A DNA stretch of 36,226 nt from positions 1 to 36,226 of the IMG/VR virus record IMGVR_UViG_3300045988_120291; one strand, written 5' to 3'. Positions within the stretch are counted from its first letter, which is position 1. The number at the start of each line of letters is the position of its first letter. The DNA comes from a virus. A program made the position numbers and the translations under genes. The notes beneath the pieces were generated by a model that worked only from the letters and a program-made list of their open reading frames with translations, was not told the origin of the DNA and did no database searches. Positions 2,830-24,809 of this stretch are shown piece by piece.

Positions 2830-3561
2830 TCACCTCCCTCGTCGTCGTCCGAATACGGTCATCGTTGATTTACGCTGTTCGCGCCAACCATCCGTTATGG
2901 CGTCCATTGCCGCCTCGTGAGCTATGATCGCAGCCATGGCCGCGTCAATCTTTTGATGATCTTCGGGCTTGCCCAAAATGTACATCTGCCCGGGTTTGGC
3001 CACCTTTTTCGCGTTGGCCATTGCTTCCACAGTGAGTGGGCAGCCGTCATGTTTAATGCGACCTTGCCGTAGGTCCACCTCGAAACGCCGGATCGCCGCG
3101 TACATACGCTTGATTTGGTTTGTCGGCCATTCCAGCACCTGGCATCCCTCGCTGCCGTAGTTCAGTGCCCATTCGCCGATCTCTGAATACCAGTCTTGAG
3201 GGTCGCAGTACATGCGGCGCACCTGATAGCGGTTCATCATTTCATCTACAGCCGCGTGCACTTCATCGCGCGGGATTCGGCCGCCCCATTCTTCCGGCTT
3301 CCAGATTGTCGGCCGCCGATCCGGCCCATACCGCATTGTAAATATCCGGCCGTCGCGGGTCTTCATTTTAAGGGCTGTCCAGTCGTTGTTTTCCGACCCG
3401 TCAAACCCCACGCAGATCGGCGTGCCGTCTGGTGGGTTAGGCATCCATTCCATCATAGGCCCCTTCCCATATTCCATCAGGCAGCCATGCACCAGCACTG
3501 TAGGTGATCTTGTTCCCGAAAAAGCGTTCCGCCTGATCCGGGTCTGTCTCCGACAGCTCAT
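2830..3561 (-). CDS. terL: Terminase large subunit, C-terminal nuclease part. Real coding probably begins near 3462 after a frame change.
   Basis: Contains PPDGTPICVGFDGSENNDW and a downstream acidic motif (YCDPQDW) typical of the RNase H-like terminase nuclease. The ORF overlaps the ATPase ORF by 125 nt in another frame. Confidence 0.75.
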   Translation of the reverse strand: MSCRRQTRIRRNAFSGTRSPTVLVHGCLMEYGKGPMMEWMPNPPDGTPICVGFDGSENNDWTALKMKTRDGRIFTMRYGPDRRPTIWKPEEWGGRIPRDEVHAAVDEMMNRYQVRRMYCDPQDWYSEIGEWALNYGSEGCQVLEWPTNQIKRMYAAIRRFEVDLRQGRIKHDGCPLTVEAMANAKKVAKPGQMYILGKPEDHQKIDAAMAAIIAHEAAMDAITDGWREQRKSTMTVFGRRRGR

Positions 3562-4492
3562 TAGCTTCTGCTAGCACACCGTCAATAGGCACCCACGGGC
3601 TGCCCGTGTAGACGTGCTCTAGGATTTTCCGGCGGTCTGCCTTGCGGGACCATTTAAGCCCCTTTGGTGGCGGCTCGTAGAACTTGAAAACGTCTTCCAC
3701 CGTAGACAAATAGGTTCTCTGCGCCACGCTATTTTCAGACGAATCATATGCGTTGGTGGTTTCCAATGTTCGGCCACCCATACCGGCCGCACCACGGCGT
3801 TGCGCGTCGGCAACTGCCATCATTCTATTTCTTTTGGTCCACAGGCCCGTTTCGTCCTGCAAGACGAATGAGACGGGGTTACCCACACGGCTTGTTGCTG
3901 ATGACGTCACGACGTCGATACGGTCGGCCTTGTCGCCGCCCTCACCGCCAAGAATGCGGATAAACCCCTCACGGTCTGCCAGCCGCTCACTGAGTGGCCC
4001 CAATTCGATCATTGATCGTAAGGGCCTGTAGGTGTTGTCTACCTGATCCTCCGATGTGGCCGTGAGCTGAATCAGTGGTGAAGGGTGCGGCCGCCCCATT
4101 GGTTCGCCCGGCTCATAGAAGTACTCGAAGCCGCATCCACAGCCCCAATCACTGCACTTGTAAACCTCGTCACCCTGTGCCCAGCCGTCAAATTCCGACG
4201 GCCCCACAGCCATGACAGCAACGATAGACGCGGCCGCCGGTCCTTTGCCTGTCTTCTGCGGCCCCATGATCTGAGCGCGGCGATAATGGAAAGCCTGCGA
4301 CCTGAGTGGTTCGCCTTCCCATTTCAGCCCCTCACGAATGCGGCCGAGGTTAGCGAAACACCAAAATTGCCAGTCGGACCACTCGAATGGTTCACCACGC
4401 CGATAGCCGTCTGGTATGCGGCAATGAGCGAAAACCCATGCATCCCATAGGTCGCCAAGGGTGGGAAAGTTCACAACCCATTTCGTGGCCAT
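3437..4492 (-). CDS. terL: Terminase large subunit, N-terminal ATPase part
   Basis: Walker A-like GPQKTGKGP and Walker B-like FVLQDETG. ATG at 4492 overlaps the small terminase stop (TAATG). It ends prematurely at 3437, just before the nuclease domain. Confidence 0.8.
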   Translation of the reverse strand: MATKWVVNFPTLGDLWDAWVFAHCRIPDGYRRGEPFEWSDWQFWCFANLGRIREGLKWEGEPLRSQAFHYRRAQIMGPQKTGKGPAAASIVAVMAVGPSEFDGWAQGDEVYKCSDWGCGCGFEYFYEPGEPMGRPHPSPLIQLTATSEDQVDNTYRPLRSMIELGPLSERLADREGFIRILGGEGGDKADRIDVVTSSATSRVGNPVSFVLQDETGLWTKRNRMMAVADAQRRGAAGMGGRTLETTNAYDSSENSVAQRTYLSTVEDVFKFYEPPPKGLKWSRKADRRKILEHVYTGSPWVPIDGVLAEANELSETDPDQAERFFGNKITYSAGAWLPDGIWEGAYDGMDA

Positions 4493-6816: not shown

Positions 6817-7026
6817 CTACCGGCCGGTACTAGTCGCCTCACCACAGATCAGCCGCACTACACGACCCCGGCCACCGGCTACACGACGCCAAGCCACAAA
6901 AGACCCGGCGCGCCAATGGAGGGCACCCTTTTCCGCAGCCACCTGGCAAGGCCACGGACACGGAGACGCCGCACCGCGTTGGATACGCGGCCGCTCATTT
7001 CGTGCGTTAGTTTCCAATATTGTCAT
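6817..7026 (-). CDS. Hypothetical small Arg-rich protein (weak call)
   Basis: 69-aa ORF whose ATG overlaps the upstream stop as ATGA, suggesting translational coupling. No recognisable motif. Confidence 0.3.
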   Translation of the reverse strand: MTILETNARNERPRIQRGAASPCPWPCQVAAEKGALHWRAGSFVAWRRVAGGRGRVVRLICGEATSTGR

Positions 7027-8132
7027 CGCCTTTTTCGTTCGCTCATGCTGGTTTGCTGAGTCCGGCCATATGCGCGGCCACCATGGGTGTTCCCTAGATT
7101 CCTCGGGTTTACTGCGGTCGTGTTCCCGCCACCGGCAGAACCTACACCCCTCCTCGGTTTTACGCTTCCCATACGGGGGCCACCGTCAGAGTTGGTTTTA
7201 CGCTGCGTTTTTCCGGCGCGCCGTTGCCTTCCGTTTGCCTGCCTTCCGCTTTCGCCACGGTCTTTATCAGGATCAGACGCCACCATATTAAACCGCTGGC
7301 TGCGGCTAGGTGACTCATGGTCGGCTTTCTTTCTTCTAGTAGTTACCTTTTTCGTGTGCGGGGTTTCCCAGGCGTGGTTTCGCGGGGAATCCTCTATCAA
7401 TGCGCAATCCTTTTTATCGTCGAGGGGATTAGGCACATTGAGTTTTCGGGCCACACGGCTCGTTACGCTAGGCCATTTGCTCAATTGCTCTACCAGACCC
7501 GGGCCGTAAACCGGCTGGACCGGCGGGTCTAGGAGTGGGAACTCCTCATCAGGGTTAACCGAAGCGGCACGGCCTTCATTGCACGCAGAACATGCAACAA
7601 CGAAAGTGGCCGGTGTCGTCGGCGAGTCTATATCTCGATGGTCGAAAGTCTGTCCTCGATCAGACCGGGTATCGCCCCATACGACATCGACGCCGCAATA
7701 CCTACACTGGTCCCCATCCCTAAACAGAACAGGAACCACAAGAGAAGCCTTACGGCGATCGTTCTTCCTTTTATCTGCCTTCTTCTTATCATCCGACCTA
7801 ATCAGGTGCACAAAATTGACGTCATCCAGCAGCATGTAGGTTTTAACATCCCCATCATCACTCTGACCATGGGGGAGCTTTGGGGTGAGCACCCCAATAG
7901 CAATTAGGTCGTTAATAACCTCTTGATGACCCGCAATGCCGACAGTCTGAATAACCATACCTTTGGTCACCTCATAATCTGTCCAAGCCACTGCGGAAGA
8001 AATAAACAAGGCCGTAGTAACGCCCTTGAGTTTGATCACCAGAGACTCATCTCCTCTAGTCGCGGCCAATTCAGCCGCCCACATCCAAACCTTGTGGTCA
8101 TTGAAAGTATCGGAAAATCGTGCCCAGGACAT
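7023..8132 (-). CDS. HNH-motif protein with a long basic, low-complexity C-terminal tail. A replication or recombination role is possible.
   Basis: 369-aa ORF with RDGDQCRYCG ... FDHRDI ... ACSACN (HNH-like). The C-terminal ~120 aa are rich in R/K/G/S. Confidence 0.65.
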   Translation of the reverse strand: MSWARFSDTFNDHKVWMWAAELAATRGDESLVIKLKGVTTALFISSAVAWTDYEVTKGMVIQTVGIAGHQEVINDLIAIGVLTPKLPHGQSDDGDVKTYMLLDDVNFVHLIRSDDKKKADKRKNDRRKASLVVPVLFRDGDQCRYCGVDVVWGDTRSDRGQTFDHRDIDSPTTPATFVVACSACNEGRAASVNPDEEFPLLDPPVQPVYGPGLVEQLSKWPSVTSRVARKLNVPNPLDDKKDCALIEDSPRNHAWETPHTKKVTTRRKKADHESPSRSQRFNMVASDPDKDRGESGRQANGRQRRAGKTQRKTNSDGGPRMGSVKPRRGVGSAGGGNTTAVNPRNLGNTHGGRAYGRTQQTSMSERKRR

Positions 8133-9076: not shown

Positions 9077-9802
9077 CTACCCGAATTGCAGCACTTGCTG
9101 TCCTAGACGCTTTGCGATTACCTCGCAGTACCGTTCTTCCAATTCAATCGCAATGACTTTTTGACCTAGATTCCTAGCGGCGACCACCGTGGCCCCGGTT
9201 CCCGCGAATGGATCAACGATGGTACGGCCACGCGGCATCCGCTCAATCAATCTTTCCATCAACCTCACAGGCTTAACAGTTGGGTGCCTGAACTTGTTTT
9301 CTTCACCATGCGACCCGCCACGCAGACCATCAACTGCAAGCACAGACCCGGCGCGCTTGAACCGGTATGGGCTGATTGCTTCTTCCATGTTCCACGCTTT
9401 TCCCAGCATGTGGATTTCCTCGTGCGAGTGCCCGAAGGGTGATTTTAGGTTTCCCATTCCTGGTGTTCCTGTTTTCCACCACACGAGTCGGTTTACTTCC
9501 CCTTCTGGGGGTTGTACTCGCCATGTTCCAAATACAACTCCAGCGGAGTTCTTGCACCCCGGCGTGTTGTCATATTCTAGCCATTCTCTGATTGCGGCGT
9601 CGCGTAACTCGGTTGATTCATCTCCTTTTACTCTCCATCCTTTTTCGTTTTTCCCTCTATACCCTGACTTGTACCCCATTCCATAGGGGGGGTCGGTCAC
9701 GAGGTTACGGTGTGGTACCCAGATTGGCAGTAGCTCAGGGCTGAGCGCGTCGCCATGGTATATTGCCACGCCGTCGATCTCATAGAATGGCTGCGGTGCC
9801 AC
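9077..9802 (-). CDS. DNA methyltransferase, beta-class (N6-adenine or N4-cytosine)
   Basis: A DPPYG motif lies N-terminal and FAGTGAT (the AdoMet-binding FxGxG) C-terminal; this order is that of the beta group. GTG start with SD GGAGAGG. Confidence 0.8.
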   Translation of the reverse strand: MAPQPFYEIDGVAIYHGDALSPELLPIWVPHRNLVTDPPYGMGYKSGYRGKNEKGWRVKGDESTELRDAAIREWLEYDNTPGCKNSAGVVFGTWRVQPPEGEVNRLVWWKTGTPGMGNLKSPFGHSHEEIHMLGKAWNMEEAISPYRFKRAGSVLAVDGLRGGSHGEENKFRHPTVKPVRLMERLIERMPRGRTIVDPFAGTGATVVAARNLGQKVIAIELEERYCEVIAKRLGQQVLQFG

Positions 9803-11830: not shown

Positions 11831-11980
11831 ATGTTCATCTTTGACTTACTAGCCCCCCTGTGTGGCGGCGTCGGCTTCACATCCATTGTCCTAATGAGTG
11901 CCGCCGCAATCTACAAAACTGTTACGGATTACGGCAACTTGACCTACACGGAAGGAACTCACCCTGATGATCACATTTAA
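11831..11980 (+). CDS. Small hydrophobic protein (49 aa) with a predicted single transmembrane helix. It is not in the ORF track.
   Basis: My translation: MFIFDLLAPLCGGVGFTSIVLMSAAAIYKTVTDYGNLTYTEGTHPDDHI, stop TAA at 11978..11980. CAGATTGGA lies 8 nt upstream of the ATG. It overlaps the next ATG by 14 nt. Confidence 0.45.
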   Translation: MFIFDLLAPLCGGVGFTSIVLMSAAAIYKTVTDYGNLTYTEGTHPDDHI

Positions 11981-12398
11981 CCTGCGCGGACTTCCTCAGC
12001 CCATACGGTCCACCGGCCTCATCAGCGCACTAGTCGAGCACTATAAACGAATCATAGCGGTAGAGAAGCACCCCGTATCGCCGAATATCCTTGTCATTGA
12101 CCCGGCAACCGGAACTGTGATCGGCGAAGTGCAAAACCTCACTGGCGAAGACGAAACCAACTCTGATCCTGATTACGCAGCTTTTCGCATTCGGCAAGCG
12201 CACACGCAAGAACGCAAGCTACAGATGGAACTGCGAGCAGCGAAAGCGCACAAGAAGCAGCTCATCCGCGAAGCCGTAAGCCTTAAACTGCTCACCTACC
12301 GCAACATCGCTGATCTTCTTCACCAAACGCCGCAGAACATCCGCAGCATTGCCCAACCCTCACCCTCAGAACTAGGAACGACCCATGCAAAATCTTGA
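11967..12398 (+). CDS. Hypothetical protein with a C-terminal HTH-like segment
   Basis: 143-aa ORF. LLTYRNIADLLHQTPQNIRSIAQ resembles an HTH. SD GGAAGGAA upstream. Confidence 0.6.
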   Translation: MITFNLRGLPQPIRSTGLISALVEHYKRIIAVEKHPVSPNILVIDPATGTVIGEVQNLTGEDETNSDPDYAAFRIRQAHTQERKLQMELRAAKAHKKQLIREAVSLKLLTYRNIADLLHQTPQNIRSIAQPSPSELGTTHAKS

Positions 12399-12831
12399 CA
12401 GCGCTAAATTCGTCGAGTCCCTTCTCAATGAAGAAGTCTTCCAGCTTCCTACTTCCGCAGACGATGAATTTCAAAAGCTAGTTGATTCTGGCAAGAAGCT
12501 AACCGAATCCCTCGCGGAAAGCCTCAACTTACAAACCCTTGCCGATCTCAAAGAATCAAACCCCCATAACCCCGTGTACATGGCGTGCCCACTAAACCCC
12601 TCAATGCCAGTGATGCACAGCGAAACGCAAAGCTACGCGCTTTCACTGACACTGAATAAGCGCACCGCTGGAAACACGCCGGGAATTGACGTCTACACCC
12701 TGTCTGCATACCCCGTATGCACCAGTCTAACCGGCTGCTACGTGCGCCACATAGTCGGATTCCCGAGCCTGCTTAACCAAATCGCACGTCTCGACGTCTT
12801 CGGCATCGATAGGTTTATAGATTCGCTCTAG
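12385..12831 (+). CDS. Hypothetical protein
   Basis: 148-aa ORF with a 14-nt overlap on the upstream gene and protein-like composition. Confidence 0.6.
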   Translation: MQNLDSAKFVESLLNEEVFQLPTSADDEFQKLVDSGKKLTESLAESLNLQTLADLKESNPHNPVYMACPLNPSMPVMHSETQSYALSLTLNKRTAGNTPGIDVYTLSAYPVCTSLTGCYVRHIVGFPSLLNQIARLDVFGIDRFIDSL

Positions 12832-12838
12832 CCGCTCC

Positions 12839-12986
12839 GACCTGCAACAATAAGCGCGCATCACCCCCAAATAAGGGCAACACACAACCAATGCATTGCG
12901 TGGCCACGCAACGGGTGATACAGTGAAAGACGTCCACAACAAAGGGGAACAAACCCCACACCAGATTGGAGATAAGCAATGAGCAC
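12839..12986 (+). repeat. Repeat A, copy 1 (partner at 15177..15320): an intergenic promoter/operator/leader module
   Basis: Hand alignment with copy 2 gives 12 mismatches and one 4-nt indel over about 144 positions. The repeat runs into the first codons (ATGAGCAC). Confidence 0.9.
12896..12924 (+). promoter_or_regulatory. Extended -10 promoter overlapped by a perfect 16-bp palindrome
   Basis: TTGCGT (12896..12901), 17-nt spacer, TGATACAGT with -10 TACAGT (12919..12924). Palindrome TTGCGTGGCCACGCAA at 12896..12911. Confidence 0.55.
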
Positions 12987-13281
12987 ACCCTACACATTCA
13001 CCCACCCAAGCCCCGGCGTTTTCGAGGCACACTACAGTGATCAAACGTTCGCAATCCTGGAACGCCATACCTGCGTTTCCTCAGTCGCCGGAACCGTTGA
13101 TAACCGCGAACTTTGGGTTATCGTCGATCCGCTCCAGGAGGCCAACATCAACACCCGCGACCTGAACTGCATCTACCACATCTGCGAAGGATTCCCAACC
13201 TACAAAGCCGCCGCAGCAAAAGCATGGGAAAACTACAACACGTACGGCGTCGCCCTTCCTATCGGTATTGCCGACTGCTGA
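12979..13281 (+). CDS. Hypothetical small protein (100 aa)
   Basis: The ORF follows repeat A. CAGATTGGAGAT lies 8 nt upstream of the ATG. Confidence 0.6.
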   Translation: MSTPYTFTHPSPGVFEAHYSDQTFAILERHTCVSSVAGTVDNRELWVIVDPLQEANINTRDLNCIYHICEGFPTYKAAAAKAWENYNTYGVALPIGIADC

Positions 13282-13284
13282 GAA

Positions 13285-13360
13285 CAAGCGCCCGGGGTGA
13301 GCGCACAATCACCCCCCACCCGGCGCGCGGCCACCGGAACAACGGCCGCAGATTGGATTT
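13285..13360 (+). repeat. Repeat B, copy 1 (partner at 15655..15731): an intercistronic double-hairpin element
   Basis: The first 31 nt are identical to copy 2 and the rest is near-identical with small indels. Hairpins: GGGGTGA/TCACCCC (13294..13315) and GCGGCC/GGCCGC (13327..13349). Confidence 0.9.
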
Positions 13361-13364
13361 GGTT

Positions 13365-13829
13365 ATGTATTCTTTGATTCCTGTTCCTGAGATGATTGTC
13401 CAGTCTGTTGACAGTCTTGATTGGTCTGCGGAGGTTCCGCGTGAATATGAGCCGCCTGTGTTTGGTTCGTGCGGGGCGTATAACACGGTTTTGACCGGCG
13501 ACGAGTTCTATTTGATCATGGACCGTTTGGCGATTTCGCCGCTTGATTTGTCACGGGCTACCGGCTTTCCTCAGACCAGCATCCTGTTTTGGAGGCGTTC
13601 TAAGCAAGTTCCTATGAATGTCGCGCTTACTGTTCGGCATCTACAGAAGCTCACTCACGGCGTCATCAATGCGCTTGATCACGTCACCGGGTGTTCATTC
13701 CACAACTACGGCTACCGCAGGATCGGCGATTTCTGGCTACCGGAATCGTGGTGGCGCATGTGCCTGGCCCGCAACTCTGAGCGCACGATCATGAAGGATT
13801 TTCACTACTCACATAAAAGGAGTCGCTAA
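13365..13829 (+). CDS. Hypothetical protein with an XRE-like HTH
   Basis: 154 aa from the ATG at 13365, after CAGATTGGA. LTGDEFYLIMDRLAISPLDLSRATGFPQTSILFWRRSKQVP resembles an XRE-family HTH. Confidence 0.6.
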   Translation: MYSLIPVPEMIVQSVDSLDWSAEVPREYEPPVFGSCGAYNTVLTGDEFYLIMDRLAISPLDLSRATGFPQTSILFWRRSKQVPMNVALTVRHLQKLTHGVINALDHVTGCSFHNYGYRRIGDFWLPESWWRMCLARNSERTIMKDFHYSHKRSR

Positions 13830-14546
13830 ATGTATACGGCATCTTTCCTGGAGTCTTGTGTGGCTCCCCATACCAGCGTGTACGATTCTTTCTCTGAAAC
13901 TTCCAAGCGTGTCATCTTCGGAAATGCTATCTCTATCGAGTTTTTCCCGCTAGATAAGCTTTTCTCTGTGGCCTTGGAAAATGATTCGATTGACACCTAT
14001 CGTGTCAATTTCCCTGATGATCGGCGGCGGCGTGATGAAGCGGCAGCACTCATTTCCTGGTTCGCTCATGTTGCGAATAAAACCAAGTCCCCCATTACCG
14101 ACAGTCTTCTGCATGGAACCATTCTGCCTAGCTGGTCTTCACAGTTGGCCCCGTTTGATCTTGACAATTTCCACATGCGCGGCGATTCAGTCTCATTGCT
14201 TTCTAGCCCTGCTGATTTCTTGCAATGTGGCTTATCGCATTTATGCGATGTGAGCATCAGCCTGTGTACTGATTCCCCACACGCCGCGATGGCTTCTTAT
14301 GGCGATTACAGCCTTATTCTTTCCTTCGATATAAGGAAATGCATTCTCACCAACGGCTACTACATTGGCAAGTTCTCTATCGAGGTTCGTGGCCCCGGTG
14401 CGTCCCCCATCGTGAAAGAAACAGGGCACTTTGTCACCCCATTCCACATCCTCAGTGATATTTGGGATTTCCGACACTTTGCCATTGAGCGCCTCCCCAT
14501 AACCAAAGAAGCGTGGAAAACGTACCGCGCAAACACAGAAGGATAA
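13830..14546 (+). CDS. Hypothetical protein
   Basis: 238-aa ORF. Its ATG directly abuts the upstream TAA. Confidence 0.6.
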   Translation: MYTASFLESCVAPHTSVYDSFSETSKRVIFGNAISIEFFPLDKLFSVALENDSIDTYRVNFPDDRRRRDEAAALISWFAHVANKTKSPITDSLLHGTILPSWSSQLAPFDLDNFHMRGDSVSLLSSPADFLQCGLSHLCDVSISLCTDSPHAAMASYGDYSLILSFDIRKCILTNGYYIGKFSIEVRGPGASPIVKETGHFVTPFHILSDIWDFRHFAIERLPITKEAWKTYRANTEG

Positions 14547-14551
14547 CTCCC

Positions 14552-15178
14552 ATGCCCTCCATGTTTTCACCCCTGTACCATCTGCGCTGTGTCGCTGAAA
14601 AACCGGCCCCCTACACGCGCACTGCCCATTGGTGGCGACGCTCGCTAGATATTCGCTTCTACTCATTTTTTGTTGACCGCAATACGCATTCCAGCTTTGC
14701 TACGGTCAACGGTCACACAATCACGATAGGCGACCACCCCAACCTATTCGCCGCCGGGTTCGACCCGTTCAAGAACGACATCAACTATGCCGTGTACACA
14801 ACTATCTGCGGGTTCTACACCTTCGAGCACGGCGGCATCAAGGACAAGGCCACAGCAAAGGCATACCTGCGCGAGACAACCCCATTCATCCTTGACCCTG
14901 AACCAAACCACCCTAACCGGCGATGGGATTTGATGCTCAAACAGCACCATATCGGGTTTGACCGTCTCACTGATGAAGGTATCAAGTTCCGCATCATTGA
15001 CAACTACCCGAACTCCACAAACAACCCCGATCCAATCAAGTTCAAGCGCGCCGTTGACTTGTGGGACATGCGCAAGCAAATCGCCGAATTTGAGACAGAA
15101 CGGCACCGCCTTCCCTACCCGCTCCCCTACGACTCCGCAATTCACCCTAGCCACGTCCTTGAATACATGCCGCGCTGA
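14552..15178 (+). CDS. Hypothetical protein. Start revised to the ATG at 14552.
   Basis: The track ORF starts at 14513 inside the upstream gene. The ATG at 14552 has GAAGGA upstream and gives 208 aa. Confidence 0.6.
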   Translation: MPSMFSPLYHLRCVAEKPAPYTRTAHWWRRSLDIRFYSFFVDRNTHSSFATVNGHTITIGDHPNLFAAGFDPFKNDINYAVYTTICGFYTFEHGGIKDKATAKAYLRETTPFILDPEPNHPNRRWDLMLKQHHIGFDRLTDEGIKFRIIDNYPNSTNNPDPIKFKRAVDLWDMRKQIAEFETERHRLPYPLPYDSAIHPSHVLEYMPR

Positions 15179-15320
15179 CCTGCAACAACAAGCACACACC
15201 ACCCCTAAATAAGGGCAACACACAACCAATGCGTTGCGTGGCCACACAACGGGTGATACAGTGAAACATGTCCACAAGGGGAACAAACCCCACACCAGAT
15301 TGGAGATTGGTAATGAGCAC
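15177..15320 (+). repeat. Repeat A, copy 2
   Basis: See copy 1. It begins within the stop codon of the upstream gene. Confidence 0.9.
15234..15262 (+). promoter_or_regulatory. Extended -10 promoter with the palindrome carrying one mismatch
   Basis: TTGCGT (15234..15239), 17-nt spacer, TGATACAGT (-10 at 15257..15262). Operator TTGCGTGGCCACACAA at 15234..15249. Confidence 0.55.
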
Positions 15321-15648
15321 CATCAACCTAGACACCCTCAATTGGGAATCCACCCCCGCAGAATGGGGCCTAACCTTCGGCGAAACCGCTAACCTGCCCG
15401 GCAGTGACCAGCGCGGCGGAAACGACATGATCCTTGACTTCGACCTTGACGGCACCCGCAAGGCACGCCTGGCAATCGATCCCGCACTTGTCGGCATGAA
15501 GACCCCACAGGGCATGGCTTTCAGTGATGACACGGCACACTGGCCCGTCCTGGATCGCGCATTCGGCCGCAAGCAATGGCAAGGCTTCCTCAGCCGCAAG
15601 ACCTCCGAAATGCTCAGCGACCTAGCCGATTGGGAACCAGAAGACTAA
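15313..15648 (+). CDS. Hypothetical small acidic protein (111 aa). Start revised to 15313.
   Basis: The ATG at 15313 is preceded by CAGATTGGAGAT at 8 nt. It shares the MST start with the copy-1 gene but has no other visible similarity to it. Confidence 0.6.
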   Translation: MSTINLDTLNWESTPAEWGLTFGETANLPGSDQRGGNDMILDFDLDGTRKARLAIDPALVGMKTPQGMAFSDDTAHWPVLDRAFGRKQWQGFLSRKTSEMLSDLADWEPED

Positions 15649-15654
15649 CCGCAT

Positions 15655-15731
15655 CAAGCGCCCGGGGTGAGCGCACAATCACCCCACAAACCCGGCGCGC
15701 GGCCACCGGACAACGGCCGCAGATTGGATTT
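15655..15731 (+). repeat. Repeat B, copy 2
   Basis: See copy 1. Confidence 0.9.
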
Positions 15732-15737
15732 CTTGTC

Positions 15738-16199
15738 ATGCACCTTCCTAGTGAGTCTTTTTCCACCCCCAAGATTAGGCTTTGCGACACCAACACCCCG
15801 CATGGGATTGTCCCCTCTGGACCTGATTCGCTTTATGACACGATTGAGCAGATGGTGTCTTCTGCGGGCACGATTCGGCCGGCGTTTTTGACGGCACATG
15901 AGCAGATCGCCGCGAACTATGGGCATGTTCTGGCATTGTTTTACGTTGTTCAGATTGTGCGTAACAAAGTTGCTGCTGATTCTCCTAACCCCAACGATCT
16001 GATTGCACTGAATGAGCTTTCCCGCGATTACTCAGCGCGCGCTAGGGGTTTGCACACTGCACTAGTTTCCCTCTACGGTCTTGTTGATGTTGACTTGGTT
16101 TCGCTGGCTGATGACGTTGCCGAATCCGCTCATCACATCGCTACTGAGCGCGCGGAATGGCTTTTCAAGAAGCCCGGTTTTTCCATCTCTGATCTGTAG
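15738..16199 (+). CDS. Hypothetical protein (153 aa). Start revised to 15738.
   Basis: ATG after repeat B and CAGATTGGATTT. The ORF ends 25 nt before the bidirectional terminator. Confidence 0.6.
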   Translation: MHLPSESFSTPKIRLCDTNTPHGIVPSGPDSLYDTIEQMVSSAGTIRPAFLTAHEQIAANYGHVLALFYVVQIVRNKVAADSPNPNDLIALNELSRDYSARARGLHTALVSLYGLVDVDLVSLADDVAESAHHIATERAEWLFKKPGFSISDL

Positions 16200-17182: not shown

Positions 17183-18610
17183 TTAGTTCTCTCCTTTGAT
17201 TTTCTTGATCAGTTTTTCGCGTGCTTCACGCTTGATCTTTTCGGGGTCAAGTCCAATTGCGCGGGCAATTGCATCCTGCACCTCGCGGATTTCCCACGCG
17301 GCGGCGTCGATAAACGCAAGCGCTTGGGTCTGTTCCATTTCTGTCATGTTGTCCACGTAGCTCGGGACTTTCTTCTGAACGGCTATTTTTGTGTCGTTCA
17401 GCGCGGCGGCAGACACGCCGCCTAGTTCGATATAGCTCACACTCTCTCCATTCTGATGTGGTGCATCACCACCATAAAATAATTGTTTCAGCTGGTCAAT
17501 TGTGCCCCGGAAAGCATTAATGTCAACCTCACGCCCTGCGACCAATCCGCGTGACCCGAACTGCCAGATAACGGGCTTCTGGTCACCCAGCGGGTAATCC
17601 CATTGCTGGTGATAGTCTCCGCCGTAGATATGCGCTGGCACACCGCCGAAATTCCGGCCATATGCGGCCACCCATACAGCGCCGAACTCCTCAGTCTTTG
17701 GCTCGCCCTCAAATACGCGACCCTCCCACCATGGAACGTAGGAATAGACACCACAGACTCGCACACCCGCAGCCTCGAAAAGGCGTTTAGCTTCACGAAT
17801 GTGCTCGACACTCAGGCCCGCGTCAGTTTCGCAGTCAAGCCACATTGGACGGCGCGCATCCCCCATGACGGCAAGTGCCGCATCGACCTGCTGCGCCACC
17901 GTTGTCCCCTCTGAAGGGTTCCGCAGGTAGTGGTAAGCCGCAGTCACCATTCCCGCGCTTTCCGCGTCATCCAAGTGCGACTGGTAGCAACGATCCATAT
18001 ACGTGCCGTCCGTTGTGCGGATAATAGCAAACTGAATCCCCTCGTTTGCGGCTTGCCGCAGCGACATGCCGTCTTGATGCTCTGAAACATCAACGCCGAA
18101 CACTGTTCCTCCGAATCCCTCAATGCCCCCCGGCGCGGCTTGTTGCGCGGGTGCTGGTTGTTGTCCTTGTTCTGGTTCTAGTGCACCCGCAAGCCATGGC
18201 ACAGCGTCAATTGCTTCTCCACGGGCGAATGTCCATGGGTACACCTCAAAATGCAGGTGCGGGGCGACGCCGCCGTTAGTTGCGGAGTTTGGGTTGATGT
18301 GTGCAATGCGCTGCCCGGCGCGTACCTGGTCGCCGACGCTCACCTCGGCGATGACGTGGCCGTATACCGTCTGGCCGCCGCCTTGTTCGTCTGAGTGGTC
18401 GATGCGTACCCATCCCGCAGGGGAAGGCCCCCCGTAGCCGGAGGCTGCGCCGGTCTGTACTACGGTGCCCGCCTGCGCGGCGTAGACCGGCATACCTGCG
18501 CTGCCGCCTTCACGCCCGAAATCTGTTCCCCAATGCATCCACCCGTCACGCATCCCATATGGTGACGTCAACATTCGGCCGTTTCCTAGCGGCCAATATC
18601 GTTCTGCCAT
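17183..18610 (-). CDS. Endolysin: N-terminal M23 peptidase, central GH25 muramidase and an unassigned C-terminal domain
   Basis: M23-like: SPYGMR...HWGTDF...HLHFEV. GH25-like: GVDVSEHQDG...FAIIRTTDG...DCE. The last ~90 aa have no recognised motif. Confidence 0.8.
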   Translation of the reverse strand: MAERYWPLGNGRMLTSPYGMRDGWMHWGTDFGREGGSAGMPVYAAQAGTVVQTGAASGYGGPSPAGWVRIDHSDEQGGGQTVYGHVIAEVSVGDQVRAGQRIAHINPNSATNGGVAPHLHFEVYPWTFARGEAIDAVPWLAGALEPEQGQQPAPAQQAAPGGIEGFGGTVFGVDVSEHQDGMSLRQAANEGIQFAIIRTTDGTYMDRCYQSHLDDAESAGMVTAAYHYLRNPSEGTTVAQQVDAALAVMGDARRPMWLDCETDAGLSVEHIREAKRLFEAAGVRVCGVYSYVPWWEGRVFEGEPKTEEFGAVWVAAYGRNFGGVPAHIYGGDYHQQWDYPLGDQKPVIWQFGSRGLVAGREVDINAFRGTIDQLKQLFYGGDAPHQNGESVSYIELGGVSAAALNDTKIAVQKKVPSYVDNMTEMEQTQALAFIDAAAWEIREVQDAIARAIGLDPEKIKREAREKLIKKIKGEN

Positions 18611-18634: not shown

Positions 18635-21600
18635 TTATGGCTTATATACCGGTGGGTTCCTGTAGAAGCCCACCTGTTCTACCCAGTCTAGTGTTTCGAT
18701 GCGTATTCCCCTATCCACGCGACCATCCCACGGGTTGTTGTTGTCGTTTTCAGACCCTAACACGCCGGTGAATGTATCGTTTGTTATGTACATGTGGCCT
18801 ACGTTTGATACCCCTGCTTTCGTGAGGCATTTCCTTGCTGTTTCCACATCCGGGCAATTGTGGATTGCGTGCCAGAATCGTAGCGACATACGGCCCCGAT
18901 AATGCGCGGGCATTACTGTTTCTTTCAAATACTTCTCTGCGGATTGCTCAAATGACATGAGCGTATCGGCTGCGCCTAGCATAGCCTCAATCGTGTTCCC
19001 GCCCGGGTTTGCGACCACATAGAACGCGCTTCCATATTTCTCACGCAGCTTGGAATACAGCTCAGTATAGAAACTGACTTTCGCGCGCTGTTCTTCTGAC
19101 CAGCCGTTAATTGCCTCATCAAGAAATACGCCGTGAATATTGTTGCGCGTGTAGTACTCTATGTACTGGTCAATTTCCTTGATGATGTCTGCCTGCAAAC
19201 GCCCTGCCCATTGCGTTTTCACATAGGCGATATTGACGAATCCGCGCATCGTCGTGAGCGTAAGCGTATCGGCAAATTCCTGCTCTTTACGTGTACCCAC
19301 ACCTGATTTCGGATTAGCAATTTTCGGCCCTGAGATCATTGGGTTGTATGCGTAGTCTGCCCAGTTCTCATCGTTATTTTCAAGCAGCTTCCAGTAATTC
19401 GGGTAGTTGTATGATACTTCCGAATACCGACGCCCTTTATATCCCCACAATGCGAACGGGTGAATATCCACGCCCGGAATTGGCATGTCGCGTGTACGCA
19501 GTTTTCCCAGATACTTCATTGAGTCCAGGCTTACAGCTTGCACTTTCTTCATCATTTCATGCCATGATTCCTTTGTGATAATCACATCAGGATTATCAGG
19601 GTTGAAATTGCCGTTTTTAATCAGCTCTTTCTTAATCACCCCGTCCATTGGAATATTCATGATGAACGAGTTTCCACCTACCGCACTGCGCTGCGTCCCG
19701 TTTTTCAGAACTACTTTCACCATGTGTGCACAGTCGGCCTGCGGGTCATCCTGCGCGTAGTAATTTGCTTGCGCTTGGCAACCCCTTGGGTCCTCAAAAG
19801 CAACCGCCGCCCAGTCAGCCGGGTTTGCTGCAAGACGGGTGTTATTCTCAATACCCACATTCCAAATGTTATTAGCATTGATAATCGTACCCGGCCCCGA
19901 ACACGCAATGCCATGATTCCACGTTGAACCAATTGTATTACCGGTAACAACCGAATACGCGCCGATTGAAATTCCATTGTCTTTCGACACAGGGAACGAA
20001 TTACCCACAACTACAGTGCGATGACAGTCAATCGTGAAACCACATGGCTCAAACGCAATGGTCGCATTCTCAGCCATGAGCACCGAGTTATTCAGCACCT
20101 GCGTATCCACCGGCGCACCCTGCTTTGTCTGCGTCCCGCCGATCCCCATACCACATGACACGCCACGAATACGCAGGCCGATGATCTGATTGCGCTTTGA
20201 ATTGTCCTTCACTAGGCAACCAAAGCCAGAAGCGCCCTCCTGCACGGTGTTCTGTTTCAGGCCCGCGCCGTCAACAACGCAGTTGATCAGACGGTTATCG
20301 TTCGATCCGTTGCCCGTCGGCTTGTCTTTCAGCGCGAAACCCTGGACCAGAAAACCGTTGCCGCCTGATCGACGTACCTTCACTTCCGACACGTCCACGA
20401 AATCAGCGTTTGTCAATTGCAACGCCGTTGCTGGCTTGTCACCCGTATTCCATTGCATATCAAGAACAAAATCAGCAATGTACGCATCGCGGAAACCCGC
20501 GCCGGAAGTACAATGCATTCCGTTCTTCCCCAAACCTGGTTTCATATTCAGGATCGTTGCGCGCCCCTTGCCCTGGATCACCTTGCCGCTTGCCTTATCC
20601 AAGATGATCGTATCGGAAACGTCCCATTCACCGGCAGGCAAGAAAATCACTTTCTTTTTCGGGTCATTAATAGCCGCCTGCAGATCAGCTGTAATGTCCG
20701 TTTTCCCCTGCGGAAGAATGTTAATCACAGCATCCTCACCGGCCGACGCGATAGCCTCCGCCACCTGCCGTTTCACGGCCGCAGTGATCTGCTCATTCGC
20801 CGACTCAGCTAGCAGTTTCGCCACCAGCTCCTTAGTCTTAGCCTCATCCACCGGCCCCGGCGACGTCGGCAAGTTCTCTGTTTGCAGCCGCTCAATTACA
20901 CGGCGCGTTAGCGCCTCCATATCCACATCGCGGATATTCCCCATTTGTTTCAGCTGTTCAGCCAATTCTGTCGCTACCTGCGCGGGAATTTTTTTCAGCT
21001 CTGCCTGAACATCTTCCTTAGCTTTCGTGGCTTTCTGCGCCTCAGATTCAGCGGTTGATGCAGCGGTTGACGCCTGCGATGCGGCCGTTTTCGCTTGCTC
21101 TACAGCGGCAGTGCTTGTCGCCACTACCCCGCTGAGATCGCTCTTTGCGGTCGTTGCCGCCGTCTGCACCTCAGACAGTTGTCGTTTCGCTTGTTCCGCC
21201 GCGTCGGTCGCTTCCGCAGACGCCGCAAGCGCGGTTGTGGCGCGCTCTCGCGCCCATTCCGCCTGTGACGCCGCCGAATCTGCCGATAATGCGGCGTTCG
21301 ATGCTTTCTCTTCCACAGTCGCAGCCGCGGAGATTGCTTTGTCTGCCTTTTCCGATGCTGTGCCCGCTGCCGTAGCCGCAGTGTCGGCTGCAGCCTTAGC
21401 AGCTGCGGCGGCATCTTTCGCTGCCGCCGTCTCTGTGCTCGCATCCCCAATGAGCGCCTGCACCTGCGCGGCCACACGCTGCACTTCCGACTCCGCTAGT
21501 TCCTGCTCCGTAAGTGCCGCACGCGCCGCGTTCTCTAGGCTTATATCGGCCTTCCCGACCACGATAGGGATTGTCTCTAGACTTGACCCCCGTATTGTCC

Positions 21601-21811
21601 CCTGCGACTGGTGGACAAGTACCAGAACAGACTGCCCTTCCGACGCCTCGAAAGACACTTGCCCAGTCGTCGTGTCAATGGGCACTTTAGTAGGCTCTGA
21701 TGTGACGATCCCCCCGGCCACAGGCCGGGTATTTATTGCGCGTACCCACAGCTCTTTGATGGTGGACACCCGGCCGGAAATATTAACGACCTTGCCCGAT
21801 ACACGAGGCAT
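18635..21811 (-). CDS. Tail fibre / tailspike with an Ala-rich coiled coil, a beta-helix (pectate-lyase-like) module and a C-terminal Spherulin-4/Sph3-like module
   Basis: 1058 aa. Residues ~95-300 are an Ala/Thr/Glu-rich coiled coil. Residues ~365-720 carry DLQAAINDPKKKVIFLPAGEWDV and repeated GN/NN turns. Residues ~780-1045 carry ANPKSGVG, IAYVKTQW, HGVFLDEA, VVANPGG and NPWDG. Confidence 0.7.
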   Translation of the reverse strand: MPRVSGKVVNISGRVSTIKELWVRAINTRPVAGGIVTSEPTKVPIDTTTGQVSFEASEGQSVLVLVHQSQGTIRGSSLETIPIVVGKADISLENAARAALTEQELAESEVQRVAAQVQALIGDASTETAAAKDAAAAAKAAADTAATAAGTASEKADKAISAAATVEEKASNAALSADSAASQAEWARERATTALAASAEATDAAEQAKRQLSEVQTAATTAKSDLSGVVATSTAAVEQAKTAASQASTAASTAESEAQKATKAKEDVQAELKKIPAQVATELAEQLKQMGNIRDVDMEALTRRVIERLQTENLPTSPGPVDEAKTKELVAKLLAESANEQITAAVKRQVAEAIASAGEDAVINILPQGKTDITADLQAAINDPKKKVIFLPAGEWDVSDTIILDKASGKVIQGKGRATILNMKPGLGKNGMHCTSGAGFRDAYIADFVLDMQWNTGDKPATALQLTNADFVDVSEVKVRRSGGNGFLVQGFALKDKPTGNGSNDNRLINCVVDGAGLKQNTVQEGASGFGCLVKDNSKRNQIIGLRIRGVSCGMGIGGTQTKQGAPVDTQVLNNSVLMAENATIAFEPCGFTIDCHRTVVVGNSFPVSKDNGISIGAYSVVTGNTIGSTWNHGIACSGPGTIINANNIWNVGIENNTRLAANPADWAAVAFEDPRGCQAQANYYAQDDPQADCAHMVKVVLKNGTQRSAVGGNSFIMNIPMDGVIKKELIKNGNFNPDNPDVIITKESWHEMMKKVQAVSLDSMKYLGKLRTRDMPIPGVDIHPFALWGYKGRRYSEVSYNYPNYWKLLENNDENWADYAYNPMISGPKIANPKSGVGTRKEQEFADTLTLTTMRGFVNIAYVKTQWAGRLQADIIKEIDQYIEYYTRNNIHGVFLDEAINGWSEEQRAKVSFYTELYSKLREKYGSAFYVVANPGGNTIEAMLGAADTLMSFEQSAEKYLKETVMPAHYRGRMSLRFWHAIHNCPDVETARKCLTKAGVSNVGHMYITNDTFTGVLGSENDNNNPWDGRVDRGIRIETLDWVEQVGFYRNPPVYKP

Positions 21812-21825
21812 ATTTTGTTTCCCTT

Positions 21826-23034
21826 CTATGTGTTATCTTCACGCACAATGTAGAACACCGTTGTACTGTCTAGGTGCCGCAGGGTTCGACCCTCATGCCA
21901 CACACGTTTATTCTGATCAACATCATACGTCTGGATATATGCGGAGGCAGTTCGATAAGAAATAAACATCGATATTTGCCCCTTCCAATTTCCTTTTGCG
22001 GTAATTGTTGGTGCAGAATCTAATATCTTGTTTTCAATCTTGATATATCGATCTTCTACGGTCCATTCATTATCTGCGGCAATCATTCTTAATTGCAGCT
22101 GATTTACACGATGAATTGTGTTCTGATTGAGCCGCGTAGCTTCATCTAGCTTTTTGATTGCACTGTCATGCTCTTTCGATGCTTTATCCAGCGCCTCAAT
22201 TGCTCTGTTCTGCGCCGTTTGAGCGCGTCCCAGGACACGAATAGCTGCGTTGTTCAGGTCGATAGCCTCATTCTGCAGCTGATCATTGACCTTTTTTATC
22301 TTCCCGAACTCAGTATTTAAACCCTCTAGGGCTTTCTGTGCTTTTTCTGCATCTTCTAGCGCCTTAACAACCTCGTCTTTCTTCTGCGACGCGGTAGCCA
22401 CAGCCGACTTTCCCAGCTCAAGCGCAGCCGCTGAATCCTTCACGGCTTTATCAACCTCGCCGGTAATGCTTTTCAGCTCACGCAAGCGCTGCCGCTTCTC
22501 AGAAAGCACAGCATTGCGGATCGGATCATTATGCGCACGCAGCGCCTCAGCATCTGAAATCAACTGACCTCCGACATGCACCTTATACCCGGCGCGGTTG
22601 TCGTCGTCGGTTATCCAGTCAATACTTGTTACGGGGAGGTCTATTTGTTTTCCCCATAGCTGTACCGGAACTACATCGCCGACGTTGAAATCTATTTCGG
22701 GCCGTGTGAGTCCGAGGCCGGGGCCGGTTATGTCCTGCTCAAAGAAGGTATCTCCGGTGGTGCGTTTTTGCGCGGCGTCTACTACTGACTCCAGGTCTGT
22801 TGTTCCCGCGTCGAGGTCGATTGTCACATCTGCTCGGACAAACCCTATATCGAACTTTCCACGCAACACGCCCCGGCGACGAGGGTCGTAAACGTAGCCG
22901 TCTACGATGCGGTTATCCGCAGTGTGCTTTTCTTGCCCTTCTGGCAGCTTGACCTCGAACTTTCCATATGTATATGTGGCTATCGTTCGTGTCACTGTCA
23001 GTTCTCCGCCGGTGGCGGCTAGCATAATTCCCAT
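21826..23034 (-). CDS. Minor tail protein with a coiled-coil central region
   Basis: 402 aa in the tail-tip gene block. SD GAAGGGAGG lies 5 nt before the ATG. Confidence 0.6.
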   Translation of the reverse strand: MGIMLAATGGELTVTRTIATYTYGKFEVKLPEGQEKHTADNRIVDGYVYDPRRRGVLRGKFDIGFVRADVTIDLDAGTTDLESVVDAAQKRTTGDTFFEQDITGPGLGLTRPEIDFNVGDVVPVQLWGKQIDLPVTSIDWITDDDNRAGYKVHVGGQLISDAEALRAHNDPIRNAVLSEKRQRLRELKSITGEVDKAVKDSAAALELGKSAVATASQKKDEVVKALEDAEKAQKALEGLNTEFGKIKKVNDQLQNEAIDLNNAAIRVLGRAQTAQNRAIEALDKASKEHDSAIKKLDEATRLNQNTIHRVNQLQLRMIAADNEWTVEDRYIKIENKILDSAPTITAKGNWKGQISMFISYRTASAYIQTYDVDQNKRVWHEGRTLRHLDSTTVFYIVREDNT

Positions 23035-23112: not shown

Positions 23113-24030
23113 TCACTGCGCTTTTCTTCGTGTTGCTGTTACATCAACTATAATTACCGGTTTCATTGGTGTTCCTACTTCCGTGTTAATGAAGCCTTTG
23201 AATGGGAACCACATCCACGCTGAAATGTCTATCCCCGCTGCTAACGCCGGGGCTGATATTGTTTCCAGCAGTGGCCCATCTTGTGGCCGCAATAGAAGCT
23301 CAGGCGTTTTCTTTGTATCCCACCGTTTTCTATCGTTTAGCATTATTGGTGCATCGCGTTTGTTTATACCCGCGATACGCCAACATGCTTGCAGGCTTGA
23401 ATCTATGACCGTTCGTATTACTTCACGGGCTTCACCTTTTATTGTTGTACCGTCTGCCGATGTCGCCATTTGAATATCAGCCAAACGGCGCGGCCGCTTG
23501 AACTGTATTATTTTATCTGGTTCACCCTTCCAGTCGCGCGTGAAATCAAAGAATGCATTTTCCTTCCAACTTATCGGCCCACTCATAGCAGGGAACCGAT
23601 CAAGCATTTTCAGCACTTCGACGCCATGAATCTCAATTATAGAAGGCGCAAATGGGTTATTTCCCTTTGCTATACAATGAGTGACCCAATACACTCGATT
23701 CCTGTAATTACTTCGACGAATGAATAAAAAGCGCGTCTTGTCAACGATAGGCTTCATTCGGCCCTCGCTGTCCACTTCACCCAGCCCCTCGGCCATTAGA
23801 TGCGCTACGCAACGATGAGGAATCCCCTTGCCTGCATTGACCATTACGGTCGCCACAACCGACGCCGGTTCCCCACGAGTGCGCGACGCCTGCAAGTTCA
23901 ACAGCGGCGGAAGATCACACAGTGGCAAACCGTCTTCATCGAGTATCGCAGCATACTGGCCCATGTTTTCCGCTACCTCTAGCGCGTGCCGCGACCACTC
24001 ACTCCAACCTTTATCATCTAGAGACGCCAT
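23113..24030 (-). CDS. Minor tail protein (Tal-position gene)
   Basis: 305-aa ORF directly after the distal tail protein gene, with a 13-nt overlap. Confidence 0.55.
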   Translation of the reverse strand: MASLDDKGWSEWSRHALEVAENMGQYAAILDEDGLPLCDLPPLLNLQASRTRGEPASVVATVMVNAGKGIPHRCVAHLMAEGLGEVDSEGRMKPIVDKTRFLFIRRSNYRNRVYWVTHCIAKGNNPFAPSIIEIHGVEVLKMLDRFPAMSGPISWKENAFFDFTRDWKGEPDKIIQFKRPRRLADIQMATSADGTTIKGEAREVIRTVIDSSLQACWRIAGINKRDAPIMLNDRKRWDTKKTPELLLRPQDGPLLETISAPALAAGIDISAWMWFPFKGFINTEVGTPMKPVIIVDVTATRRKAQ

Positions 24031-24809
24031 GGATCACAAACCCCTATCTCCCATTCAAGTGAAGAACCTAGCGGCAGCTCAAAATCAGCCTGCCGACCCG
24101 GCGCGATTGGTTCTGCCACCACTCTTCCAATCTGGTTCCAGATCCACTGATCTAGGCTCCCGTCTGCATATAGCACCATGCATGATTGTAATTCGTCTAG
24201 CAGCAAGGTTCTTTGGTTTGCGACCTGCGGTAGTCGGAATGTGTAGCCTGATGGTAGTTTGACTGTTCCGCCTTCCCCGTTCCAACGGAGTGTCGGCCTG
24301 ATCAGGCAGTCACCGGAATTGTAGATGCTGATTTTGTTGCCAGCACCTTTACCCTCTTCACGGAATGCTGATGTCCACCACACGCCGTGGTCTGCGACTA
24401 GTGGGACTTCAATCTCACTGAACGCCACCTCGTCGCTGATGTCTGACTGCGGTGGGGCTATCGCGTCCTCTAAGCGCACGTGTATGGACAATCGGCCGGC
24501 CATTTCTGATTGAATTTCCAGCACGCCGCCGGATATACCGGCGAATATTGAACGCACTTCACGGTATTTGCGTTCAGCTTCCAGCATAGTTGTTGCCGCG
24601 ATACCGATAGTCAGCTTCCCAGTGACTGCGGGTATCTCCCATGATTCCACTAGCTGCCCCGGCAGGCCCGGCGCGGTGAGGGTTTTGGCTTCGATTTTGC
24701 CGACTAGGCCCTCGATTCCTGCGTGCATGATTGAGACGCGCCAATCACCGGCGCGCGTGAGGTCCAGTACACGCCCGTCTGTGGACGTGTACCGGATCGC
24801 GTTTACCAT
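24018..24809 (-). CDS. Distal tail protein (Dit-like)
   Basis: 263-aa ORF immediately downstream of the tape measure, which is the conserved siphovirus position. Confidence 0.6.
   Translation of the reverse strand: MVNAIRYTSTDGRVLDLTRAGDWRVSIMHAGIEGLVGKIEAKTLTAPGLPGQLVESWEIPAVTGKLTIGIAATTMLEAERKYREVRSIFAGISGGVLEIQSEMAGRLSIHVRLEDAIAPPQSDISDEVAFSEIEVPLVADHGVWWTSAFREEGKGAGNKISIYNSGDCLIRPTLRWNGEGGTVKLPSGYTFRLPQVANQRTLLLDELQSCMVLYADGSLDQWIWNQIGRVVAEPIAPGRQADFELPLGSSLEWEIGVCDPWRL

Follow-up and report, generated by a model that had tools for sequence, protein, structure and literature searches.

The window analysed here, a 36,226-nucleotide stretch of viral DNA (IMG/VR record IMGVR_UViG_3300045988_120291, positions 1 to 36,226), comes from a ~36-kb siphovirus of the human oral cavity and carries a complete gene for a 1058-residue tail-fibre protein. 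In this protein, an N-terminal anchor and an alanine-rich coiled-coil stalk are followed by a right-handed parallel beta-helix and, at the C terminus, by a (beta/alpha)8 barrel that is of the Spherulin4/GH135 type by profile, fold and catalytic residues and for which glycosidase activity is predicted. We consider it probable that the protein is a distal tail fibre, or receptor-binding protein, whose beta-helix and GH135 tip serve as a virion-borne depolymerase of surface polysaccharide on what is probably a Corynebacterium host. The analysis shows how the domains are arranged and folded, that putative catalytic residues are conserved, that the gene is placed in the tail module and that the module pair recurs in other phages; trimer state, enzymatic activity, substrate and host are inferred from these findings. 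Fibre-borne phage depolymerases as such are of a known kind, and nothing in the proposed mechanism is exotic; what is new is the GH135 family, investigated to date in fungal and bacterial biofilm formation but not as part of a phage, and a two-module layout that recurs across lineages.

A tail fibre ending in a Spherulin4/GH135-type barrel

An earlier interpretation made from the letters of the window alone (the sequence-only reading) had proposed that the C terminus of the fibre resembles Spherulin-4 and Sph3, based on short motifs that are all present in the protein (ANPKSGVG, residues 832-839; AYVKTQW, 862-868; DIIKEIDQY, 875-883; HGVFLDEA, 893-900; VVANPGG, 932-938; NPWDG, 1026-1030). Residues 780-1045 were examined for a profile or structural match to the GH135/Spherulin-4 family, and both were found. 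Pfam PF12138 (Spherulin4) matched residues 823-1013 well above its gathering score (90.7 bits compared to 30.2, E 1.4e-25, profile positions 25-222 of 239), and a phmmer search of the PDB sequences returned Sph3 of Aspergillus clavatus (5c5g/5d6t) at E 3e-4 and nothing else notable. An AlphaFold2 model of residues 780-1058 was found to have strands alternating with helices, with a predicted template-modelling score (pTM) of 0.73 and a predicted local distance difference test score (pLDDT) of 80-94 in the core. When this model was compared to the PDB by Foldseek, Sph3 (5c5g, 5d6t) ranked first (E 2e-10, TMt 0.65), and the remaining TIM barrels, including PelA (5tcb, E 1.3e-3), followed at about E 1e-3 (all ≥ 9e-4). 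Viral proteins named 'Spherulation-specific family 4' were matched by the barrel in BFVD (down to E 1.5e-23, 39% identity).

For Sph3, Asp166, Glu167 and Glu222 have been named as putative catalytic residues (PMC10485009). D898, E899 and E955 of the fibre align with these three residues and with an identical 56-residue spacing; in the Sph3 alignment the Asp of FFDE and the Glu of VVFE are likewise 56 residues apart, as are 166 and 222. Among 122 homologous domains from an exhaustive HMMER search, D898 was kept in 100%, E899 in 94% and E955 in 98%, and the NPG motif, Y863 and D949 were found to be common to these homologues and Sph3; the NPG and Y/T motifs of Sph3 are conserved in the barrel of the window.

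Sph3 is the one characterised member of GH135 and is a retaining endo-alpha-1,4-N-acetylgalactosaminidase, while galactosaminogalactan (GAG) and Pel are the targets of enzymes from the related families GH114, GH166 and GH191 (PMC10485009, PMC12054363); GH135 and GH166 are both classed as retaining enzymes that cleave alpha-linked N-acetylgalactosamine (GalNAc) (PMC12054363). By analogy with Sph3, a GalNAc polymer is the most likely substrate of the barrel. The setting of the two proteins differs, as Sph3 is a membrane-anchored enzyme of its producer's own galactosaminogalactan biosynthesis cluster, whereas the barrel of the window lies at the distal tip of a phage fibre and would be aimed at the glycan of another organism. 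The PelA hydrolase (GH166) and Ega3 (GH114) are similar in being (beta/alpha)8 barrels that act on alpha-1,4-linked GalNAc or galactosamine (GalN) exopolysaccharides. By contrast to Sph3, they belong to other CAZy families, their match to the barrel is much weaker, and there is none at the sequence level.

Assignment of the protein to the tail fibres rests on two findings, namely the place of its gene among those for tail morphogenesis and the homology of its N-terminus with fibres already described. The PHROG family phrog_18185 ('tail fiber protein') matched residues 1-305 (E 2.4e-10), and the stalk region was also matched by a second family of this annotation, phrog_3279. The anchor (residues 1-94) is only 4% alanine; by contrast, alanine makes up 33% of residues 95-300 (20912..21529) and 29% of residues 95-343. 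Over the latter range a hydrophobic periodicity of 3.5 residues was detected with a power of 74, compared to 7.8 ± 8.1 for shuffled sequences (0 of 500 shuffles as high), and no signal was found at periods of 3.6 and 3.67. Thus, the stalk is a heptad coiled coil and not mere low-complexity sequence, and the sequence-only reading of a tail fibre with an alanine-rich coiled coil was upheld. We infer that the fibre is trimeric, the heptad periodicity of the stalk being the one observation that relates to its oligomeric state.

The coiled coil also dominated searches with the full-length protein: from 8000 candidates, only a 94%-identical variant (P0001) emerged. The domains were therefore searched separately. 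No match to the whole gene was detected by megablast of 50,697 phage records, none was detected by tblastn with the N-terminal 343 residues, and NCBIfam held no family for the full protein or for the beta-helix segment. Conservation of the linker between the two modules (residues 716-790) was partial and limited to the two closest relatives, P0008 and P0009.

The central beta-helix and the spread of the module pair

The AlphaFold2 model of the central module (pTM 0.79) has more than 30 short strands between about residues 362 and 719. Foldseek returned 182 PDB matches at E ≤ 1e-3, and all 50 of those listed were right-handed beta-helix proteins. The top match was a GH87 structure (6k0q, E 2e-9, TMq 0.57-0.60), and further matches included the tailspike ORF18 of GVE2 (7chu), the Vibrio polysaccharide lyase RbmB (9ozl), AlgE4 and the tailspikes of Sf6 and CBA120. 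A profile of beta-helix homologues searched against the PDB likewise detected 7chu, the Geobacillus virus E2 tailspike described as a 'putative pectin lyase' (E 3e-9), and the GH87 alpha-1,3-glucanase 7c7d (E 1e-6), with both alignments running through the N-terminal cap; when the central segment was used as a single sequence, only a chance match to the PDB was obtained. Among 21 homologues searched with Pfam, PF13229 (Beta_helix) was found in 17 and PF12708 in 9. The pectate-lyase-like beta-helix of the sequence-only reading therefore holds for the fold, on the evidence of the model, Foldseek and the homologue profile; in sequence, the segment of the fibre itself falls below every Pfam beta-helix threshold, while most of its homologues match PF13229. 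Membership in GH87 was not accepted, as the match to the GH87 domain CatAgl_D2 is below threshold and covers 42 residues of the cap only.

Conservation within this module points to a candidate active site. E588, D611 and N612 are shared by every one of 39 homologues (26-64% identity), and D451 and H633 are kept in 92% and 85% of them, respectively. E588, D611/N612 and H633 are spaced 22-23 residues apart, that is, one coil each, and the active sites of tailspikes and of GH28 and GH87 enzymes are laid out on successive coils in this manner. The spacing of E588, D611 and N612 (23 residues, then 1) equals that of the GH87 triad D1045/D1068/D1069 of a Paenibacillus enzyme as named in PDB titles, a comparison made by spacing alone and to be taken as a lead only. 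The invariance of E588, D611 and N612 makes catalysis by the beta-helix plausible. Thus, of the two catalytic modules proposed earlier, the barrel has a conserved catalytic set, while for the beta-helix catalysis is suggested by invariant acidic residues. A host with a two-layer glycan coat, which the sequence-only reading took two such modules to imply, is a conceivable but speculative consequence.

A homologue of the beta-helix was also detected on a bacterial chromosome (P0005, 5331..6821 of locus L008, GCA_041854585.1; 35-37% identity). This protein has a signal-like sequence at its N-terminus and a hydrophobic anchor at its C-terminus, and its neighbours are housekeeping genes (an ABC transporter, a two-component system, GreA and a P-type ATPase). 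Based on these features, the beta-helix family also exists as a bacterial cell-surface protein.

The fibre resembles the tailspikes of Sf6 (TSP), CBA120 (TSP2 and TSP3) and GVE2 (ORF18), together with the GH87 domain, in having a beta-helix after an anchor and acidic residues on successive coils; like tailspike genes, its gene lies in the tail module. By contrast, in classical tailspikes little or nothing follows the beta-helix, at most a small beta-sandwich, whereas this fibre continues into a second, unrelated glycoside-hydrolase fold. It also differs in that a 250-residue coiled-coil stalk precedes the beta-helix and in that the beta-helix misses the Pfam thresholds of GH87 and other beta-helix families.

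The exhaustive HMMER search yielded 1314 proteins at E ≤ 1e-3, and 155 representatives (the 150 best of these together with earlier finds) were examined. Both modules were present in 9 of these 155, three of which had the swapped order, with Spherulin4 first and the beta-helix second; a further one of the nine (P0011, 1220 residues) has a beta-helix followed by two tandem Spherulin4 domains (residues 689-935 and 989-1157). Spherulin4 relatives were detected on at least 209 IMG/VR viral contigs. At 80 IMG/VR loci that were examined, the GC content ranged from 37 to 67% and the open reading frames (ORFs) from 347 to 1184 residues, and the beta-helix pair was found at 13. The domain order is swapped in three or more lineages, including on a contig of 43.5% GC that was binned with Streptococcus oralis. 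Other fusions include Spherulin4 with collagen repeats (locus L081) and with a different beta-helix, PF12708 (locus L061). The pair of beta-helix and Spherulin4 thus recurs in several phage lineages and in both orders. Per-domain identities to the protein of the window are correlated (r = 0.88 for 13 proteins, which are not independent), and the N-terminal anchors of the two-module proteins differ; these two findings suggest that the pair is a distal cassette exchanged between fibres. On two unrelated contigs (L003 10001..12250 and L015 7470..9995), the gene for the swapped-order protein has the major tail protein gene on one side and the tail chaperone or tape measure genes on the other, and its product may be a side fibre attached to the tail tube rather than a tip fibre.

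In deposited phages, by contrast, a Spherulin4 domain was found in only three distinct phages among the 50,697 records. The earlier suggestion that the module is uncommon in phages therefore applies to isolated phages but not to uncultivated ones, given the IMG/VR contigs and several viral entries in UniProt. In Rothia phage Spartoi and a prophage of Rothia amarae JCM 11375, the barrel is a separate gene of ~320-360 residues among the tail genes, just before the lysin, with no beta-helix fusion. In Streptococcus phage vB_SthS_VA460 of S. thermophilus, the gene for a 429-residue Spherulin4 'hypothetical protein' (AUN43448.1, L002 5860..7149) is flanked by those for holin and lysin, which places it in the lysis region and outside the tail genes. 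A scan of GTDB genomes with the two-module alignment gave no match, its patterns being too specific; a scan with another alignment gave only three loci.

The domain call itself is already in databases, as UniProt names several proteins of uncultivated phages 'Spherulation-specific family 4'. Three ~1265-residue Spherulin4 proteins have been described in viral genomes from Atacama soil and read as sporulation-related auxiliary genes (Hwang et al. 2021, PMC8269230); this was the sole work that our literature search found to link the family to viruses, and a search for GH135, Sph3, PF12138 or galactosaminidase together with phage tails returned nothing relevant. The Atacama proteins, the Siphoviridae sp. 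proteins of UniProt and BFVD and gp21 of Spartoi are similar to the fibre in carrying the same domain in phage genomes, but have been read as sporulation auxiliary metabolic genes or as 'hypothetical protein' and not as tail-fibre enzymes.

Proposed function and alternative explanations

We propose that the N-terminal anchor of ~95 residues plugs into the baseplate and that the alanine-rich coiled coil of ~250 residues acts as a stalk that holds out two glycan-active modules in series. The groove of the beta-helix would bind a host surface polysaccharide and probably cleave it, its target being either a glycan other than that of the barrel or a different portion of one coat. The barrel at the tip would act as a retaining endo-glycosidase, with D898/E899 and E955 as catalytic residues, and hydrolyse a polysaccharide of the cell surface or the matrix; by analogy with Sph3, its substrate would most likely be a polymer rich in alpha-1,4-linked GalNAc or GalN that is similar to Pel or galactosaminogalactan. 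Cutting of these glycans would allow the virion to tunnel through the outer glycan layer or plaque matrix to the cell wall, and the same activity may free progeny.

Several points weigh against this proposal. Identity of the barrel to Sph3 is only ~20%, so its substrate could differ from GalNAc polymers. One source (PMC12054363) prints the catalytic pair of Sph3 as Asp196/Glu222, and the fibre has an alanine (Ala929) at the position equivalent to D196; we consider 'Asp196' in that source to be a misprint for Asp166. Both models were built from shallow alignments and have disordered ends (six sequences and a mean pLDDT of 68 for the barrel, five sequences and a mean pLDDT of 75 for the beta-helix). 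The closest Pfam result for the beta-helix, CatAgl_D2, scored 26 bits compared to a cut-off of 27, so that no threshold was passed. The assignment of the host, described below, is indirect.

Of the alternatives, the one that we take most seriously, while still regarding it as unlikely, is that only the GH135 barrel is catalytic and that the beta-helix is a non-enzymatic shaft or a lectin-like receptor-binding module, as in beta-helical adhesins, in which case the fibre would not have two depolymerases. The failure of the beta-helix to pass any curated family threshold would fit such a role, as would the presence of non-hydrolytic proteins among its fold matches (the adhesin PfbA and the AlgE epimerases) and the fact that its profile links to GH87 and 7chu cover the cap and not the catalytic region. 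Against such a role, E588, D611 and N612 are invariant in all 39 homologues, H633 and D451 are highly conserved, and the spacing of ~22-23 residues on successive coils is the usual active-site layout of tailspikes and of GH28 and GH87 enzymes.

A second alternative concerns the targets, which could be plaque-matrix polymers of other species rather than the coat of the host, such that the phage would move through biofilm to reach its host; streptococcal alpha-1,3-glucan for a GH87-like beta-helix and Pel-like polymers for the barrel are examples of possible substrates. The oral source of the phage is consistent with this, and GH87 alpha-1,3-glucanases rank among the closest relatives of the beta-helix by both fold and profile. 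Pel loci have been reported in oral streptococci (PMC7112168), and the same cassette was found on the contig binned with S. oralis. We nonetheless find this explanation improbable, since fibre-borne depolymerases are normally host-specific receptor-binding proteins, the GH87 match is below threshold and confined to the cap region, and the cassette is also present on many contigs of unknown habitat.

Less probable still is that the barrel is a catalytically silent tip that binds carbohydrate or serves as a folding or trimerisation cap. Lectin-like tips are common among phage receptor-binding proteins and the N- and C-terminal edges of the barrel are poorly modelled, but lectin derivatives of enzymes usually lose their catalytic residues, and here the full D-E...E set is 94-100% conserved over the 122 homologues, together with NPG, Y863 and D949. 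An auxiliary 'sporulation' or 'spherulation' gene of host origin, with a metabolic or extremotolerance role that alters host development, is suggested by the name of the Pfam family and by the published interpretation (PMC8269230) but can be given almost no credence, as the domain is fused in frame to an anchor, coiled coil and beta-helix in a tail module beside an endolysin, retains glycoside-hydrolase catalytic residues, is elsewhere fused to collagen repeats or found among phage tail genes, and has as its characterised member a glycoside hydrolase and not a sporulation regulator. Fusion to fibre domains and gene position thus contradict the sporulation reading; a stand-alone, host-like gene outside the structural modules was not what was found. 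The possibility that the barrel is part of the neighbouring lysis cassette was also rejected, as its coding sequence continues the reading frame of the fibre and the M23 and GH25 endolysin is a gene of its own.

To our knowledge, nearly every phage depolymerase investigated to date is a beta-helical tailspike from a phage that infects Gram-negative bacteria. A depolymerase fibre of the kind proposed would add GH135, whose one characterised member is a fungal biosynthetic enzyme, to this repertoire and, as predicted from sequence, would place the family on many uncultivated phages of Gram-positive or actinobacterial hosts, often beside a beta-helix module. Bacilli, clostridia, actinobacteria and streptococci, S. 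thermophilus and S. salivarius among them, are reported to harbour Pel loci, and the locus is reported to vary between strains of S. thermophilus (PMC7112168); these groups overlap with the hosts of the Spherulin4 phages found here. The functional reading proposed here connects GH135 enzymes and Pel-like polymers with phages of Gram-positive bacteria of the mouth in a way that can be tested directly. Were activity confirmed, viral Spherulin4 proteins would no longer be read as products of 'sporulation genes', and a GalNAc-rich polymer on the surface of oral Corynebacterium, Rothia and streptococci would be implicated as a receptor for phages or a barrier to them. The fibre would also offer a single chain with two glycan-active modules that is amenable to study, as well as naturally diversified enzymes to probe or disperse biofilm matrices of the Pel and GAG type.

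A broader and more tentative proposal, which we hold to be possible but on balance doubtful, is that GH135 barrels are widespread, unrecognised phage depolymerases of polymers of the Pel and galactosaminogalactan type, and that the pair forms a true two-enzyme fibre that removes two glycans in sequence. If so, oral Corynebacterium, Rothia and streptococci would display Pel-like polymers as phage receptors or barriers, and such enzymes might act across kingdoms on the GAG biofilms of Aspergillus and the Pel biofilms of Pseudomonas, similarly to Sph3 and PelA.

Genome context, host and other features

The genes on the minus strand follow the order major capsid, connectors, major tail protein, chaperones, tape measure, three minor tail genes, fibre, endolysin and a holin-like gene with two transmembrane segments (Table 1). 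Genes for portal, protease and terminase are found at the left end of the window, which indicates that the window is a permuted, essentially complete genome. An identical fibre protein is encoded by a 36.3-kb contig from a human oral metagenome, and the 94%-identical variant, with 102 member sequences, was found on three further contigs of 26-36 kb. No integrase, tRNA or repressor was detected anywhere in the genome.

Table 1. Coordinates of the fibre gene, its parts and adjacent genes in the window.
Feature	Position	Strand	Basis or remark
Tail-fibre gene, complete	18635..21811	(-)	ATG start, 1058 residues and stop codon; ORF list
N-terminal anchor, residues 1-94	21530..21811	(-)	PHROG match and composition; would attach to baseplate
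Ala-rich heptad coiled-coil stalk, residues 95-343	20783..21529	(-)	Periodicity; PHROG tail fiber families
Right-handed parallel beta-helix, residues 344-715	19667..20782	(-)	Putative glycanase/lyase or glycan-binding groove; AlphaFold2 and Foldseek
Candidate beta-helix active site: E588 (20048..20050), D611-N612 (19976..19981), H633 (19913..19915)	19913..20050	(-)	Conservation
Linker/neck, residues 716-790	19442..19666	(-)	One predicted helix, ~residues 750-771; low pLDDT
Spherulin4/GH135-type (beta/alpha)8 barrel, residues 791-1058	18638..19441	(-)	Pfam, phmmer, AlphaFold2, Foldseek
Putative catalytic residues D898-E899 (19115..19120), E955 (18947..18949)	18947..19120	(-)	Alignment with Sph3
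Endolysin, M23 peptidase and GH25 muramidase	17183..18610	(-)	Directly downstream of fibre; PF01551, PF01183, phrog_3084 (E 4e-123)
Three minor tail/baseplate genes	21826..23034, 23113..24030, 24018..24809	(-)	Directly upstream of fibre; PHROGs 20692, 16996, 106
Tape measure, 2116 residues	24845..31195	(-)	PF10145 on the protein of a relative contig

The host was approached through relatives of the genes that flank the fibre. Matches to the endolysin were limited to phages of Mycobacterium, Gordonia, Rhodococcus, Corynebacterium and Tsukamurella (Mycobacteriales), and the 305-residue minor tail protein matched only Corynebacterium phages (12 of 12 records). Taken together with the oral source and a window GC content of ~55%, these matches suggest that an oral Corynebacterium is the most likely host.

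Three other regions of the genome were noted. A block of six to seven ORFs (100-238 residues; 11967..16199, plus strand) is oriented against all remaining parts of the genome, and no PHROG matches any of its ORFs. The large terminase subunit (2830..4492, minus strand) is divided between two ORFs that overlap and differ in frame. The first (3437..4492, 351 residues) is matched end to end by phrog_19179, the ATPase half (E 8e-164), and the second (2830..3561, 243 residues) is matched from residue 37 by phrog_21277, the nuclease half (E 7e-102), with the homologous parts abutting near 3440-3455. As each half has its own PHROG, this arrangement suggests either a frameshift, programmed or due to assembly error, or a genuinely split terminase. 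The early region encodes an HNH-endonuclease-like protein of 369 residues (7023..8132, minus strand) and an N6/N4 DNA methyltransferase (9077..9802, minus strand).

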